Shown here in pieces: positions 4,007 through 13,590 of a stretch of 14,486 bases of DNA. A model generated the notes under the pieces. The model did not search any database and was not told the origin of the DNA. It worked only from the letters and a program-made list of their open reading frames with translations. The DNA comes from Candidatus Hodarchaeum mangrovi (GTDB lineage Archaea > Asgardarchaeota > Heimdallarchaeia > Hodarchaeales > Hodarchaeaceae): positions 1 to 14,486 of the forward strand of contig JAEOUE010000118.1 of the NCBI GenBank assembly GCA_016839515.1. Direction: 5' to 3'. Position numbers and translations under genes: made by a program. Numbering within the stretch: the first letter of the stretch is position 1; the number at the start of each line of letters is the position of its first letter.

Positions 4007-4480
4007 ATGACCTTTGAAGAACAGAAATTTCCTTATAAATGGTTTAATGCAATAATTAATACATTAAATAAATAAAAAAATGATTCACATCTATTATCCT
4101 TTGAGATAGCCAGTCAAATCGGATCGTGTGTTTCTGATGCTAGTGAATCAACAAGGATGCTATACTATCTATTGCATTTTGGGAAATTAGATAAAGATCA
4201 ACATGGAAAATGGTACTTAATCTCTGATTCCCCAAATAAATTTCCAGAAATTGATTTTCGGATTAAATATCTCCAAAATCTTGTTGAAATCTTGAAAATC
4301 ATCCAGAACGCTGATCACCCAATACATATTGATGAATTAACCGAAATCGTGAATTTTGGGTCAGATTACGTTTTACAGGCTCTAGAATTTTATGCTTCAA
4401 TATCTCAAAAGGGGAAAATATATTCAGAAGGGAAAGGTTATCAAAGATCTTGGAGAATAATAGACTGGCCTTCAAAGTAA
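4007..4480 (+). pseudogene. Tandem winged-helix protein gene (157 codons before the final stop) interrupted by an in-frame TAA at 4073-4075
   Basis: ATG 4007 is preceded by GGGGA and is in frame with ORF 4157..4480. Translation: MTFEEQKFPYKWFNAIINTLNK*KNDSHLLSFEIASQIG...MLYYLLHFGKL...GKWYL, then a second helix-helix-helix-wing unit ending GKI...SWRI. Confidence 0.6.
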
Positions 4481-6784
4481 TTGAATATTTTTCCCATCAA
4501 ACGTAACCATCCCACGGATAGATAACATTTTTAGGACTGGAATGATTTCTTCTTCACTCCGATTTAACATCATACAAATTCTATCTGTTGTTGTTGAAGG
4601 ATTGAATTTCAAAATTGTAATTATTGCTTCTACAGCATCTGGGGATTCAGTTGATTTCATTGCTCCAAGTCGATGAGTAGAATCTGAGCCAATTAAATGA
4701 GCAAAGATTACTTTGAATATAGTGATTCGATCAAGGCATTCTTCAAAAATATAGGACATTGCTTGAGATCTTGAAATAGTATGACGATCTACAGTCAAAT
4801 CTCCTGCACTAGCATAATCTAATAATTTTTTAGTAGCAAGTAAAGCTTGGTTACTATGAAAATCGATATAATAAAGACCACCATACTCAGTAAGTGACTC
4901 TGCTAGATCAAGCGATTTCGTTGCAGTTCTTTGTATAGAAAGTTCCTCATCTCTTAAGATGAAAGCGTATCGGATATTACCTTTCACTAATTTCTTTAAT
5001 CGTCTTAAACTTTGAAATACAGTTGAACCATGTTCTGAGTTATTAATTTCGATTCCTACAGAGGTAGGCCCACGAGCAGTTTGATAAGTGAAAACTAGAT
5101 CAAGGCCTTTGGTATCAGCGTCAATTAAATTCCTATCAACACGAACATTCAATATCGTTAATCCATAAATAGGTATATTCTTCTCTATTGCAGCATTCAA
5201 TAATTCATATAGCACTCCCTTTGTAAAATCCCGACGCACAGGATGAGGATATTCATATATCTCAGTTTCAAATTCCCTTGCATAATTTCCCCATTTTCTT
5301 TCTAAAAAACTAATGATTTGTGATGGTGGAGAAGCTGGAGTTTTTGTGGTAGGGACTAATTCATTTAATGTTTTTATAGCAGCTTCTGATGAAGTTTGAG
5401 GGGTAATTGGAGGGGGAGAAGGGACAATCTCCTCCTCTAAGAATAGGTCAGCTAATTGTTCCTTTTCCTCAGTAGATAAAGCTAAAAAGCCTTGTTTACT
5501 TGTCTGACTTAGTTCAGATTCTTGTACTACCTTATCAGGAGTCATAGGTGGTACTCCAGCAATCGCATGAATTTGAATTTCTGTTTCAATATCTTTATCA
5601 GTCAAAACACGGATTAATCCTTGATCCTTAAATTCATTGAGTCTATCACGTAAATTACGAAGGAAAAGTCTCGGATTTCCCTCTGTATTTTGTTTAGCTA
5701 TGTTAATATATTCCTCTGAAAACGGATATGTCGGAAAAGGAGGAGAAATTCCTGAATCTTTGAATAATGTATCAAATCGAGCTTTTGCTAAAAGCATAGC
5801 AGTATCAGTTGATAAGGGTTCCAAAGTAGTGATATAATCAATTCTTTGGCGAGAATATTCAGGAACCTCATTTACAATAGATTCATTCCATACAATAGAC
5901 TGTACCATTGCAAGTACTAGGATATGTTTACACTGGTTATAGAGATTTGTAAGAGAATCAAATAATAATTGAATTCCATTATCTCTTTTGAAACGAATAT
6001 AAATGGATTCTAGCTGATCGAAGCTTAATAAAATTGGTTTTTTTGCGAGAGCTGTGATTGTATGAATAATTGATAAAGCTCTACTCTCGGTACTGATAGA
6101 TTCTGGGACATCTAACCTTTCTAAATCTGATTCAGAAATTTCTATGCCAGATAGCCATTTAAACGCTGTTGGTCTTACAGTGGGATTTAATGTATGAAAA
6201 AGAACTTCTAGAAACTGAATGTCTATATCAGGAGCAGTTGTTGCCAAATAATTAATTGCCATCTTTCTAAGATTTGTTGCATAGAATTTTTCTGGTTTAA
6301 ATGAAAAAATCTTAAGAGGATCATTTTCGAACGAAGCAGCAAGGCTACTTGCGACAGGATTATCAGGGAGCCCGTCACTAAGTGCACGAGAAATTACCTC
6401 TCCTATGAACTTTTCAAGAGGACTAAATTCCTCTCCTTCCCCTTTCTTTCTCAAGCTTATCATGATTTCTTGCAGAATATGACCATAAATTCTTTGTAAA
6501 TCACCTAGTGGCCTGACTGAGATAAATAGATAATTTTGTTCCTCAGCGATCCGTCGGAGTCGTGCGAGAATATGAGTTTTACCTACACCGGCATCTCCCA
6601 AGATCATACACATTCCTGATCGTCCTGTTGAGCGGACTTCATCAAGAGTCTCCAGTACGACCCGAGTCGCTTTTCGGTTTATTTCGGGGACGTCTATTAC
6701 TTCAGATTGCCATGGATCCCCTACACTTGTGCTTCGGAATGGATTGACTTTTCCAAGAATAATTGCATCATATATTTCAGGCAT
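4472..6784 (-). CDS. AAA+/P-loop ATPase (BrxD/DUF2791- or AAA_16-like) with Pro-rich linker, PD-(D/E)xK-like domain and C-terminal wHTH
   Basis: Walker A GDAGVGKT (6598-6575), KWLSG, Walker B LLSFDQLE, Arg-finger-like SRQRI and sensor-2-like GNPR. GLDLVF...VGIEIN near 5107-5042. The terminal ~55 aa look like a wHTH. Confidence 0.85.
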   Translation of the reverse strand: MPEIYDAIILGKVNPFRSTSVGDPWQSEVIDVPEINRKATRVVLETLDEVRSTGRSGMCMILGDAGVGKTHILARLRRIAEEQNYLFISVRPLGDLQRIYGHILQEIMISLRKKGEGEEFSPLEKFIGEVISRALSDGLPDNPVASSLAASFENDPLKIFSFKPEKFYATNLRKMAINYLATTAPDIDIQFLEVLFHTLNPTVRPTAFKWLSGIEISESDLERLDVPESISTESRALSIIHTITALAKKPILLSFDQLESIYIRFKRDNGIQLLFDSLTNLYNQCKHILVLAMVQSIVWNESIVNEVPEYSRQRIDYITTLEPLSTDTAMLLAKARFDTLFKDSGISPPFPTYPFSEEYINIAKQNTEGNPRLFLRNLRDRLNEFKDQGLIRVLTDKDIETEIQIHAIAGVPPMTPDKVVQESELSQTSKQGFLALSTEEKEQLADLFLEEEIVPSPPPITPQTSSEAAIKTLNELVPTTKTPASPPSQIISFLERKWGNYAREFETEIYEYPHPVRRDFTKGVLYELLNAAIEKNIPIYGLTILNVRVDRNLIDADTKGLDLVFTYQTARGPTSVGIEINNSEHGSTVFQSLRRLKKLVKGNIRYAFILRDEELSIQRTATKSLDLAESLTEYGGLYYIDFHSNQALLATKKLLDYASAGDLTVDRHTISRSQAMSYIFEECLDRITIFKVIFAHLIGSDSTHRLGAMKSTESPDAVEAIITILKFNPSTTTDRICMMLNRSEEEIIPVLKMLSIRGMVTFDGKNIQLL

Positions 6785-9796: not shown

Positions 9797-9885
9797 TAAA
9801 GGAATTTGACAATGATTTGGAAAATACAATATTCCTGTAAAATAAGATTTAAAATATTTATACATTGTTATATTTATGTGGTCAT

Positions 9886-12800
9886 ATGCCTAAGGTTATC
9901 TTCAACGTTACTTTAAAAGACATTTTAGCCTTTTTTTTGATCCTTTTGATAATTCCTTTTCCTAGTACATTTTCTCTAAATGAAAATACCAAAGATCAAC
10001 AAATTGATCTAACAAATTTATCCCAGATAAAAAATGAAATTGAAAGTTCAATTTTAAAAACAAATTATTTGTTTCATGTTGATACCAATTCCTTCCAGAT
10101 TTTTAAAAACATATTTCAGGAAATTAATCCTTCTGTTCTTCATTTTTATGAAAATCTTAAAGGATTTGGCTTCGTTTCGTTAACAACAGAAGAATTTCGT
10201 GAATTAAATGATAAATATCCAAAACTCCAGTCTAGATTAATAAAATCAGAATTAGCGCAAGTTTTTCCATCCGATGATGATTTATTAGTTCAATCTATCT
10301 ATCAACAAGATTCTTATCAACTTCCCGTTGATCTAATAAATGCTCGTGATCTTTGGAATGAAGGATATGAAGGAAACTCAATAAAAATAGCAATAATCGA
10401 TTCAGGTATCGATAACACACATCCTGACTTTTCTGATCGAATAGTTTATGAAGAGTCTTTCGTAACGATAGAGAATGGTTTTTCAAATAATGAAACAACT
10501 TTTGATGAACATGGGCACGGGACTCATGTTGCAGGAATTGCAGCTGGAGGAGGGTCTCAATTTCCAGGAGTAGCTCCTAAATCAGAATTATATAACTTGA
10601 AAGTAGCAGATATGACGGGACATGCCACAGAAAAAGCCTTTATTGAAGCTATTGACAAAGCTATTAGCTTAAATGTGGATATTATTTCTGTTTCTTTGGG
10701 GTTTTCAATTTCTTCACCGTGGAAGGAAGAAGATCTTCTTAGTCAAGCAGTAAACGAAGCTGTAGAGTCAGGGATAATAGTTATTGTTGCAGCTGGTAAT
10801 GAAGGCTCTGAGTCACCAAAAGCTACTATTAACTCCCCTGCTTCGGCTAAATATGTCGTAACAGTAGGTGCAAGTAATGGCAGTAATAGTATCGCCTCTT
10901 TTTCAAGTAGAGGACCATCTTTTAATTTTATAATGGATCCTGACATTATTGCTCCTGGTGTAGGAATCTATGCTCCTTTAGCTGACGGCAGTGTGATAAA
11001 ATTAGGATATAATAGTATTAGAGGAGTAAATTTGGACAAATATATTCCATTAACTGGTACTAGCATGGCTTCACCTGTCGTAGCTGGAGCTGCAGCTCTT
11101 TTACTTCAAAAGTTTCCTGATTTAAAACCAGAATCCTTTCGAGCAGCAATTCAAGAAACCGCTATTTTATTAGATAATGTTAGTAAATTTAGCCAAGGTA
11201 ATGGTTTGTTAGATGTTAAAGCTGCAGCAAATTTATTAGATTTAAGAAAAATATCAAATGGTTATAACATTATATCTTCTGAACCTAAAGGACAAGTAGA
11301 ATTTGCTGAAACTGCTACTTTTCCTGGTGATACAACTTATTTAACGATTCCATTTGTAACAGGAATGACGGGGACTGTGACATGGGCGATTGATAATGAA
11401 ATAAAAGATATAATTGAATTTGATACTAACCCAGTTGTATTAACAGAGGCATCTTACTTTGAAAAAATTTTGAGGAAAAAGGTGCCTCTAAATTTTCCTG
11501 CAGCTACATATTCAGGTAATATTACGTATATTTTTCAAGGAATTGAAAAAAGAATCCCAATTAGTGTTAGTGTAACTTCCCCTCGTACTAAATTATATTT
11601 AAATTCCCATTATACAGGGATAGAAGATTCAAGATTTTACAATTATCATGATCTTGATTCTCTACTTACCTCAGAATTATTTTTTGATATTAATGAATAT
11701 TCTGGGTCTATTGATTGGGGAAATTTAAGTATTAATGATATTCTTGTTCTTTCCGATCTGGAATTCCCCTTTAGCTCTATAGAAATCAACTTTATAAAGC
11801 GTTTTCATGATCTGAATGGATCAATCCTACTTGTCTCATCAGCCTATCCCTTCTTTAATCCCATTCCCTATGATCAAATTGCAAAAGCCTTAGAAATACC
11901 TGTAAATTATTTAGATCAATATAATATTATTAATTACACTGATGATGGGAGAGAAATCTCGCCTATCCTTCGACCATCTCCAATATTAACATATGAAACT
12001 ACTAATGAGTTTTTAGATGGTGTTTTCAATATTCAACTTAATTTTGGGTCTGCGATTTATGGAAATCTTAGTGATTCAAGATTATCAAACTCAGTACTTA
12101 TTGAAGGGACCTCTTACTTAGCTGCAACAGGATTTAATCCTCTTAGTAAAGGAAAAGTTGTTCTTTTAAGCTCAGAACTATGGCTCTATTCTTCATCACT
12201 TAAAAACAATGATGGCCAAGCTTTTATTAAAAATATCTTTGAGTGGTTGAAACCTAATGATCAAATAACAGTCAATATTAACTATCTTCAAGATAATAGG
12301 ACAATAGAAGTAGTTCTGTATCCATCATCGAAGCTCCCAACTACATTAGAAGTGTTTTTTACAAATGGGACCCAAAAATCTATTTCTTTGATGAATGATT
12401 CTATTTATGATTATGCAAGATTTTCTTTAGCTCCCGAAGCTCAAAATGAGATTATAATACAAGTTTTAAACGGTTCAAATTTATTGAAAGAATTTTCAGT
12501 CATAGACACTTTTCCTGAAGATTTCCCACAAATATATGAAATCACCATCAGCTCTCCAACCCCTGCTATTCTTCCTAGTTGGGCTGAGGATTATCCATCA
12601 GTAAAATTCTCTTTGAGCAATTTAGAGGTACTTATTAATCATACATCCTCCCCGTTAATAGAAGCTCGATTGTTGATTACAAACCAACCTGAAATTTCTT
12701 TAGATTTTATCGCTCCTCCAATAGACACACTCGATATAATTTCTAAGGAGCTAATATTTAATAAAAGTGATAGTAATGATTCTCAAGGTATTATTTGGAT

Positions 12801-13590
12801 GTTTCCATCTGATCTACCAACAAGCTTTTATTCCTATGAAGTACAAATTTGGTTTGAATTAGAAAATATAACAATATTAATAACCTATGAACGAGATTAC
12901 TTTTTCAAACCTGATTCTGAACCTATTTTCGGGATGCAAAGTACAATTCATGGTCGAAGTCTTGAAGAATATCAAAAGATAGAAACAACTAAAGATATTT
13001 ATCCATGGAATGGAGGAGAAACAGTCACTTTTAATTTAATTCCTCAAGATACGAATTCAGAGCGTTTTACAGTTTATGTGCAGCTGATACACTATTATTT
13101 ATGGTTCGCTGAGAGAACTGTACTACAAACCTTTGAGATTCCGTTTATAGCTGAAGAGAATCGTAATATCGGTACTTTTATTATTCCTGAGGACACTATT
13201 CCAGTGCCTAATTCTGAATATGAAATTGAGATTAGTAACCAACTTTTCATCCTCTTGCTCTTTTTAAGAGATTTACAAGGAAATATTGCTATTGAAGTTA
13301 TTTTCTGTATTTTTGACCAAGGATTTATTCTAGATCCCAGTTTATTAATTATTGGGATGCTCTTTGGTATTATTGCAGTAGCTGGTCTTGTTATATTCTT
13401 TAGAAATCGCTCTAGAGGTAGAAAAGCATATTATTCTTATAGATATACTTCCCCTGATTATTTTCCTAGACCCTCACCAACTTTGAGCATGAAATATTGT
13501 GGTTTTTGTGGAAATCAGATTCCCCTTCAATCTCGTTTTTGTAGTTTTTGTGGGAAAAAATTAACCTATGAGGGAGGCCATAAAGATTAA
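9886..13590 (+). CDS. Membrane-anchored S8 subtilase with Site-1-protease-like architecture and C-terminal zinc ribbon
   Basis: Signal peptide, catalytic triad D (10399, IIDSG), H (10516, HGTHVAG) and S (11062, GTSMASP), and oxyanion AAGN. TM helix at 13342-13401 and CxxC-x10-CxxC at 13498-13551. ATG 9886 is preferred over TTG 9865. Confidence 0.92.
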   Translation: MPKVIFNVTLKDILAFFLILLIIPFPSTFSLNENTKDQQIDLTNLSQIKNEIESSILKTNYLFHVDTNSFQIFKNIFQEINPSVLHFYENLKGFGFVSLTTEEFRELNDKYPKLQSRLIKSELAQVFPSDDDLLVQSIYQQDSYQLPVDLINARDLWNEGYEGNSIKIAIIDSGIDNTHPDFSDRIVYEESFVTIENGFSNNETTFDEHGHGTHVAGIAAGGGSQFPGVAPKSELYNLKVADMTGHATEKAFIEAIDKAISLNVDIISVSLGFSISSPWKEEDLLSQAVNEAVESGIIVIVAAGNEGSESPKATINSPASAKYVVTVGASNGSNSIASFSSRGPSFNFIMDPDIIAPGVGIYAPLADGSVIKLGYNSIRGVNLDKYIPLTGTSMASPVVAGAAALLLQKFPDLKPESFRAAIQETAILLDNVSKFSQGNGLLDVKAAANLLDLRKISNGYNIISSEPKGQVEFAETATFPGDTTYLTIPFVTGMTGTVTWAIDNEIKDIIEFDTNPVVLTEASYFEKILRKKVPLNFPAATYSGNITYIFQGIEKRIPISVSVTSPRTKLYLNSHYTGIEDSRFYNYHDLDSLLTSELFFDINEYSGSIDWGNLSINDILVLSDLEFPFSSIEINFIKRFHDLNGSILLVSSAYPFFNPIPYDQIAKALEIPVNYLDQYNIINYTDDGREISPILRPSPILTYETTNEFLDGVFNIQLNFGSAIYGNLSDSRLSNSVLIEGTSYLAATGFNPLSKGKVVLLSSELWLYSSSLKNNDGQAFIKNIFEWLKPNDQITVNINYLQDNRTIEVVLYPSSKLPTTLEVFFTNGTQKSISLMNDSIYDYARFSLAPEAQNEIIIQVLNGSNLLKEFSVIDTFPEDFPQIYEITISSPTPAILPSWAEDYPSVKFSLSNLEVLINHTSSPLIEARLLITNQPEISLDFIAPPIDTLDIISKELIFNKSDSNDSQGIIWMFPSDLPTSFYSYEVQIWFELENITILITYERDYFFKPDSEPIFGMQSTIHGRSLEEYQKIETTKDIYPWNGGETVTFNLIPQDTNSERFTVYVQLIHYYLWFAERTVLQTFEIPFIAEENRNIGTFIIPEDTIPVPNSEYEIEISNQLFILLLFLRDLQGNIAIEVIFCIFDQGFILDPSLLIIGMLFGIIAVAGLVIFFRNRSRGRKAYYSYRYTSPDYFPRPSPTLSMKYCGFCGNQIPLQSRFCSFCGKKLTYEGGHKD

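Follow-up and report, generated by a model that had tools for sequence, protein, structure and literature searches.

The stretch of DNA considered here (the window, 14,486 nucleotides of contig JAEOUE010000118.1) carries a gene that probably encodes a type-I membrane-anchored, outward-facing subtilisin-like protease, in which a domain layout like that of the eukaryotic site-1 protease (S1P, also MBTPS1 or SKI-1) is combined with an S8 catalytic domain of the type found in Tk-SP from Thermococcus kodakarensis. The host is an Asgard archaeon, whose nearest homologues of the protein are named Hodarchaeales and which probably belongs to that group. S1P starts the regulated proteolysis of SREBP and ATF6 and is a central regulatory protease of eukaryotes. 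The Hodarchaeales are the lineage closest to eukaryotes. We know of no described prokaryotic counterpart of S1P. A preliminary description, made from the letters of the window alone, had taken the gene for an archaeal relative of S1P; of this proposal the domain order, the similarity of the GIFT domain and the Asgard host have stood, but generic GIFT models fit the protein as well or better and its S8 domain is like that of Tk-SP. The likeness to S1P is one of layout and of the GIFT domain; descent from a common ancestor is unproven and orthology is not shown.

For the comparison, consider how S1P is built. A signal peptide and the pro-domains A and B precede an S8 domain with D218, H249, N338 and S414, after which come a P-like beta sandwich (residues 479-616), a GIFT subdomain (617-998), a transmembrane (TM) helix and a short tail (Hendrix et al. 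2024, PMC11231238). The same paper describes how the GIFT subdomain packs on two loops of the S8 domain and stabilises the oxyanion Asn, and it places a putative Ca2+ in an acidic pocket of GIFT near the interface. S1P matures in two A/B steps, is activated by SPRING and cleaves membrane-bound transcription factors ahead of S2P (PMC11231238, PMC12067269). Its P-like domain has an unusual topology, in which a discontinuous N-terminal strand belongs to both sheets. The archaeal protein follows S1P (8UW8, 8UWC) in the order signal, propeptide, S8, a segment at the P-like position, GIFT, one C-terminal TM helix and tail. It differs in that its propeptide has about 110 amino acids (aa), with the two-part A/B arrangement not found, in that about 355 beta-rich residues lie between GIFT and TM helix, in that a zinc-ribbon tail stands where the tail of S1P is short, and in that Golgi, SPRING and SREBP are missing from its context.

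The gene is one open reading frame (ORF) on the forward strand, 9865/9886..13590, and with the ATG at 9886 taken as start the protein has 1234 aa; full-length homologues have 1215-1270. A Kyte-Doolittle scan finds only two hydrophobic segments, residues 12-30 and 1150-1173. Cysteines occur only at 1141, 1205, 1208, 1219 and 1222, with none before residue 1141, and the region between the hydrophobic segments has 17 N-x-S/T sequons when 11.7 are expected from its composition; the corresponding level in six cytoplasmic neighbour proteins is 0-0.9 per 100 aa. The hydrophobic segments, the basic stretch after the TM helix, the placement of the cysteines and the sequon excess together suggest a type-I membrane protein most of which lies outside the cell. 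By hydropathy it has the ectodomain, the single C-terminal TM helix and the tail of an S1P-type membrane protein; the tail differs, since it is 61 aa long and contains a zinc ribbon. The ORF with signal, prodomain, S8 domain and one C-terminal TM helix, as given in the preliminary description, is confirmed by hydropathy, Pfam and the alignment to pro-Tk-SP. The basic tail that it ascribed to the protein is there as a basic stretch after the helix, but the description missed the CxxC-x10-CxxC zinc ribbon that follows in the same tail.

Membership of the S8 family is clear, with a Peptidase_S8 (PF00082) score of 209.1 bits against a cut-off of 21.8 and with the catalytic triad and the oxyanion Asn in canonical order. 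Each of D172, H211, N305 and S393 is conserved in at least 90% of the 12 homologues aligned, and because of this conservation activity of the protease is to be expected. Against pro-Tk-SP (3afg) the alignment of the family profile begins at chain residue 44, ahead of the catalytic domain, and from this a subtilase propeptide can be deduced; among homologues, the propeptide models Inhibitor_I9 (0.021) and Fervidolysin_NPro-like (0.056) give weak matches. When the S8 domain is compared with PDB chains by phmmer, the best relative is Tk-SP with 173.7 bits, bacterial subtilisins reach about 140 bits, and human S1P has 97.2 bits and a rank of about 55th among PDB S8 chains, which weakens the link to S1P. 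The profile of propeptide plus S8 gives 215.7 bits for Tk-SP, and human S1P is not among the best 60 PDB matches of the S8 family profile. The difference persists when only the stretch from oxyanion Asn to catalytic Ser is used, which in S1P touches the GIFT domain: Tk-SP matches the entire stretch with 97 bits, S1P only profile positions 2-66 with 47 bits, at a rank of about 57th. The S8 domain and Tk-SP have a longer stretch before the catalytic Ser in common, and the S1P match stops short of it. Since both the whole-domain and the Asn-to-Ser scores favour Tk-SP over S1P, the S8 domain is, as judged by rank of similarity and not by a tree, of the Tk-SP type. The resemblance of the S8 end to S1P that had been pointed out earlier is generic, in that Tk-SP and many subtilisins score higher on the same stretch. 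Tk-SP (3AFG, 9UES) is the best match of propeptide and S8, through the stretch before the Ser, but the match stops at the end of S8, and the PDB chain of 539 residues has no GIFT domain, TM helix, zinc ribbon or matched region after S8.

The part after the S8 domain was compared with the PDB by profiles from alignments of C-terminal parts only, built from the loci, so that the S8 domain could not drive the matches. Four such profiles were used: A3 (residues 456-1150, 27 rows), A5 (sandwich plus GIFT of a second, more distant tier of homologues, 9 rows), A6 (an Asgard S8-GIFT family B of about 965-1030 aa with short tail) and A8 (an Asgard S8-GIFT family C of about 1000 aa, within the window's own class). 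For A3, IFT52 is matched with E values of 1.1e-11, 1.8e-11 and 2.2e-9, the last being mouse IFT52 (5fms) in one stretch over profile positions 149-340; human S1P is matched at 3.9e-4 (21.8 bits, S1P residues 655-727, with a weak collinear piece at 601-630) and OST48 weakly at 0.07 over profile positions 171-323. For A5, IFT52 is reached at 1.5e-13 and human S1P at 1.9e-8 (37 bits), in pieces at 615-637, 661-736 and 822-852, the last not significant. The corresponding values for IFT52 and S1P are 1.4e-6 and 1e-3 with A6, and 1.2e-3 and 0.15 with A8. The protein is a member of the GIFT superfamily (IFT52, OST48, GldG, S1P) by family profiles over the whole domain, and its GIFT domain is, as far as these alignments tell, homologous to that of S1P. 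The GATase-like segment recognised earlier at about 11581-12255 is this GIFT domain. The collinear S1P motifs that the preliminary description had pointed out for the region after S8 were reproduced independently by HMMER, with S1P 601-630, 655-727 and, not significantly, 816-846 aligned in order, and are real beyond chance because the family-profile matches cover them.

IFT52 outscores S1P in all four of these searches and S1P is the second-best family, which weakens the S1P link. The ranking is not decisive, because a 437-aa OST48-like protein of the same genome also matches IFT52 in the PDB (1.3e-6) and does not match OST48; IFT52 seems, on these scores, to be the eukaryotic GIFT domain nearest the prokaryotic consensus, whatever the true kinship. 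As a solved structure IFT52 (5FMR, 5FMS, 8BD7) is the top-scoring relative of residues of about 604-795, with E from 1.1e-11 to 1.5e-13, but it is a cytoplasmic intraflagellar-transport protein and no protease. OST48/WBP1 (8PN9, 8B6L, 6S7O), matched weakly, resembles the archaeal protein in having a lumenal or extracellular GIFT domain and a C-terminal TM helix, and differs in having no protease domain and in that the genome encodes the OST48-like protein separately.

With Pfam, no GIFT model matches the protease itself at E <= 1, while 10 of 12 close homologues have an IFT52_GIFT match (best 1.1e-5), together with matches of DUF4350 and ABC_transp_aux. MBTPS1_4th lies above its 27-bit cut-off in two of 24 scanned proteins (P0028, 28.2 bits; P0029, 31.2 bits), where the matches span only model positions of about 37-113 of 275, and where IFT52_GIFT, ABC_transp_aux and DUF4350 score similarly or higher on the same stretch. 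A better fit of the post-catalytic part to S1P than to generic modules is hence not what was found. Among 400 Asgard genomes MBTPS1_4th matches in 59 at E <= 0.01 and in 19 above the cut-off, in comparison with none of 14 control genomes.

The acidic motif D-x-E-x6-E (D624, E626, E633) is invariant in the 26 aligned GIFT domains of the family. When every distinct GIFT domain gathered is scored against the GIFT model built in this analysis, D, E and E stand at the motif columns in 55 of 60 S8-linked domains and in 8 of 20 without a detected S8 domain; five of these eight come from S8 families, as fragments cut at the N-terminus. In the printed alignments D, E and E also stand at the corresponding places of human S1P, whereas the two IFT52 proteins have G-K-E or G-R-E, i.e., the D and the first E are missing. 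In the OST48-like protein of this genome the three residues are A-T-E.

No family or PDB sequence match was found for residues 456-565, which the preliminary description had called Ig-like and which take the place of the P-like sandwich of S1P, and none in Pfam or PDB for residues 796-1149, where homologues give weak Ig-type matches (MG2 0.0018, Filamin 0.016, Big_12 0.045). By phmmer, residues 456-1234 alone match nothing in the PDB. The model of the P-like domain itself, MBTPS1_3rd (PF23094), matches none of 24 scanned proteins and is above cut-off in 0 of 400 Asgard genomes, with two weak matches in unrelated short ORFs; this weakens the link to S1P, and a P-like domain is not detected by these searches. 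Zn_Ribbon_1 matches the tail of the protease with E 5.4e-4 and 20.1 bits, below the 25-bit cut-off, and matches homologues above cut-off with up to 33 bits; the zinc ribbon is kept in distant members of the family.

A word-indexed search returned 12 proteins, of which 11 are homologues with 38-49% identity, most of them 1215-1270 aa long; their sources name them as Hodarchaeales, Heimdallarchaeota, Hodarchaeota or Promethearchaeota. Among 1.84 billion representatives, phmmer finds 58 proteins at E <= 0.001, comprising the query's own cluster, proteins that resemble it in length and match span, fragments, as well as short matches at the zinc-ribbon end. They include the second tier, with 1220-1350 aa and 23-28% identity, in which the whole architecture including the zinc ribbon is kept; its named members come from metagenome-assembled genomes of Odinarchaeia, Baldrarchaeia and Promethearchaeota. 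S1P is absent among the eight of the 58 that were scanned with Pfam, a profile of GIFT only has 14 matches among longer proteins and none of them eukaryotic, and the second-tier profile has one match among proteins of similar length. The family is matched in 60 of 400 genomes of the phylum and in 20 of 21 other genomes of the genus; in the genus it is nearly always a single copy. Among close homologues S8 is the most conserved part with 56% identity, GIFT the second with 47%, and the beta parts have about 40%.

Eight S8 ORFs are present in the genome itself, and three of them have a GIFT domain: the 1234-aa protease, a protein of 832 aa on contig C34 and one of 1057 aa on C86. Both paralogues consist of S8, GIFT and a C-terminal TM helix (G000:C34:10006-12501, forward strand, L040; G000:C86:28246-31416, reverse strand, L041); Pfam detects only their S8 domains, and GIFT is detected only by the family model built in this analysis. 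In the 832-aa paralogue hardly anything lies between GIFT and the TM helix, and the tail is short and basic; this size plan is nearer to that of S1P than is the plan of the 1234-aa protease. The ORF at G000:C268:4771-6147 (reverse strand, L043), with GIFT, TM helix, zinc ribbon and D-x-E-x6-E, is cut by the contig end and may be a fourth S8-GIFT paralogue with its protease part unassembled. The 437-aa OST48-like protein (G000:C150:87872-89182, reverse strand, L042) has a signal, GIFT and a C-terminal TM helix, with 44.9 bits for IFT52_GIFT and, over model positions 40-245, 31.7 bits for OST48_N, below its 36-bit cut-off. It is probably the WBP1/OST48-type subunit of Heimdallarchaeia, for which such homologues are reported by Eme et al. 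2023 (PMC10307638).

The relation between these proteases was approached by an S8 tree of 34 rows (IQ-TREE, midpoint root, families subsampled, a fragmented match on C257 left out, outgroup thin). In this tree 30 GIFT-linked S8 domains and one long-branched paralogue without GIFT form a clade with support 100/100, and three of the four GIFT-less S8 paralogues of this genome fall outside it. Because the GIFT-linked S8 domains cluster in one clade, the tree fits one old S8-GIFT fusion within Asgard. The protease belongs, as one branch, to a superfamily of S8-GIFT-TM proteases found across Asgard. A separate Asgard family of about 915-1030 aa consists of S8, some 120-170 aa, GIFT, a short beta part and a TM helix (L061-L069, L072 and L073, in G370, G381, G396, G017, G311, G387, G357, G325, G321, G371 and G323). 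Its cytoplasmic tail is basic and acidic and in most members closes with a conserved P-P-x-I-E-like sequence, possibly a signal for sorting or recognition. GIFT membrane proteins also occur as three adjacent genes on the minus strand (L070, G286:C135, 552-6898; L071, G289:C168, 184-7526), two of the three having two GIFT domains each and no protease domain.

Further leads, and leads only, come from an ESM-Atlas feature search with the Baldrarchaeia homologue P0096, to which the results belong. For whole P0096, a Thorarchaeota cluster with S8, TCAF_N and DUF4350 comes first (0.96), followed at ranks 2-10 by nine clusters of eukaryotic MBTPS1 (0.93; two printed rows have 173-175 of 256 features). 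Bacterial S8 clusters reach at most 0.86, one S8+IFT52_GIFT cluster with unrecorded taxa has 0.88, and no bacterial S8-GIFT cluster is among the top 30. With residues 475-1170 of P0096, rank 2 is held by plant fragments of the third plus fourth MBTPS1 domains at 0.84, below the reliable level.

The reading that we favour, that of an outward-facing membrane protease with S1P-like layout and Tk-SP-type S8 domain, can be put as follows. The protein would be made as a zymogen with signal sequence and propeptide. Its catalytic S8 domain, of the archaeal Tk-SP type, would be followed by a beta-rich segment and then GIFT, in the order of S1P. By analogy with S1P, GIFT would pack on the protease domain through the acidic D-x-E-x6-E patch and thereby support or gate the active site. 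The long beta-rich stalk, the TM helix and a cytoplasmic zinc ribbon would tether the enzyme to the cell, and its likely job would be protein processing at the cell surface. Several results weigh against this. No substrate, partner or conserved neighbour was found for the protease. None of nine neighbouring genes is kept at any of six distant loci, i.e., synteny is confined to the genus. MBTPS1_4th (PF23090) has no match in the protease at E <= 1 and none in its genome at E <= 0.01. Once fragments are removed the motif is found in 3 of 15 S8-less GIFT domains. All the motif counts come from a sample that was gathered by likeness to this family and whose members are kin and not independent, and the tie between D-x-E-x6-E and the putative Ca2+ pocket of S1P is a conjecture of ours.

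It is possible, though on balance doubtful, that the protein is a true relative of S1P. S8, beta sandwich, GIFT and TM helix would then have come together once in Asgard and been inherited by eukaryotes as S1P/MBTPS1, so that the gene would be a surviving archaeal branch, i.e., a eukaryotic signature protein, whose site-1-type cleavage may precede that by M50 proteases. The equal domain order speaks for this, as do the second place of S1P, with collinear pieces, in every profile search of the PDB, the motif common to S1P but not IFT52, and the MBTPS1_4th matches that separate 19 Asgard genomes from all controls. The nine MBTPS1 clusters above all bacterial S8 clusters are a lead in the same direction, the better score of IFT52 does not decide the matter, and the GIFT-linked S8 domains look monophyletic in Asgard. 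On the other side stand an S8 domain that by score is far closer to Tk-SP and bacterial subtilisins (97 against 174 bits for S1P and Tk-SP), the complete lack of MBTPS1_3rd above cut-off, generic models that score the GIFT part as high or higher, and a beta-rich region and zinc ribbon for which S1P has no counterpart. A search for M50 site-2 proteases, suggested earlier as a check, found three in this genome; since M50 proteases are universal, being present in 14 of 14 control genomes, they say nothing on the link to S1P.

That an ordinary archaeal surface or nutritional subtilase independently gained a common prokaryotic GIFT module, its likeness to S1P being due to convergent domain shuffling, appears rather unlikely to us. 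GIFT does occur in many contexts in this genome and its relatives, in stand-alone GIFT-TM proteins, in double-GIFT proteins and about 800 aa after S8, and the Tk-SP-type S8 domain, the fast evolution of the protein (39-46% identity against 59-76% for its neighbours) and the lack of a conserved partner gene would all be expected. But nearly every genome of the genus has the gene (20 of 21), in a single copy, and the full architecture including the zinc ribbon is kept across Asgard classes, for which reasons a dispensable nutritional protease would be atypical. The clustering of GIFT-linked S8 domains argues for one old Asgard fusion and not repeated ones, and the top 30 Atlas look-alikes, in which one S8+IFT52_GIFT cluster is of unrecorded taxa, include no bacterial S8-GIFT cluster.

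Asgard archaea, the Hodarchaeales among them, might have invented the S8-sandwich-GIFT membrane protease from which S1P descends, and their radiation of extracellular GIFT domains, both S8-linked and OST48/WBP1-like, might be the source of the eukaryotic GIFT proteins; this is a tentative proposition, which we hold to be somewhat improbable as it stands. If it is true, the zinc-ribbon tail would hint at a coupling of the archaeal enzyme, through the membrane, to a partner in the cytoplasm. A conserved Asgard family that has the domain order of S1P, and a GIFT domain homologous to that of S1P, opens the origin of S1P to direct testing, and offers a simple archaeal system for asking what GIFT does for a protease. 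If the link to S1P fails, there is still a well-defined and widespread family of Asgard surface proteases, of which databases say only 'S8 family serine peptidase'. Full-text searches turned up no paper that links S1P to Asgard archaea, and the main texts of papers on Asgard signature proteins (PMC10307638; a 2026 bioRxiv preprint) are without S1P or subtilases, while their supplementary tables might list the family.

Table 1. Features of the protease gene, in positions of the window
Feature	Position	Strand	Basis
Whole gene, S8-GIFT membrane protease, 1234 aa	9886..13590	+	one long ORF; stop 13588-13590
Putative N-terminal signal or anchor, residues 1-30, hydrophobic core 12-30	9886..9975	+	Kyte-Doolittle scan; cleavage presumed
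Propeptide, residues ~31-140	9976..10305	+	family profile aligned to pro-Tk-SP 3afg; boundaries probable
Peptidase S8 catalytic domain, residues 163-440	10372..11205	+	Pfam, E 1.1e-61
S8 catalytic residues D172; H211; N305; S393	10399-10401; 10516-10518; 10798-10800; 11062-11064	+	conserved in homologues
Beta-rich segment, residues 456-565, in place of the P-like sandwich of S1P	11251..11580	+	position only
GIFT (GATase-like) domain, residues 566-795, invariant D624, E626, E633	11581..12270	+	profile matches to IFT52, S1P, OST48
Beta-rich region, residues 796-1149, no counterpart in S1P	12271..13332	+	Pfam and PDB searches without match
TM helix, residues 1150-1173, then RNRSRGRK	13333..13404	+	hydropathy maximum 2.95
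Predicted cytoplasmic tail, residues 1174-1234 (61 aa)	13405..13587	+	zinc ribbon within
Zinc ribbon CxxC-x10-CxxC, residues 1204-1226 (C1205, C1208, C1219, C1222)	13495-13563	+	Zn_Ribbon_1

The neighbours of the gene are of the housekeeping kind: class-III and class-V aminotransferases, a GHMP kinase, an AAA_16 ATPase, a cytidylyltransferase-like protein, CinA and the end of a P-type ATPase. Of 10 loci from the genus, all have the class-V aminotransferase gene next to the protease gene, and 9 have the ATPase gene there. Since its identity lies below that of the flanking genes in the same genomes, the protease evolves fast, as exposed proteins often do.

The window is AT-rich, with 29-38% G+C. 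An A/T-rich, TATA-like stretch at 9848-9863, about 25-38 nucleotides upstream of the ATG at 9886, suggests that the protease gene is transcribed from an archaeal promoter of its own, with a very short leader. A scan for sigma-70 promoters and terminators gave 17 sites when 20.3 are expected, but has no meaning in an archaeon. Twenty DNA runs of seven studies (sediment, soil and other metagenomes) contain at least half of the words sampled from the sequence; no RNA run is listed. On the reverse strand, at 4472-6784, lies the gene of the 770-aa AAA_16/ATPase_2-type ATPase, which is 71-76% identical across the genus. It is always adjoined by an ORF of 107 aa without family (4157-4480, forward strand, 28-35% identical), with which it forms a conserved pair.

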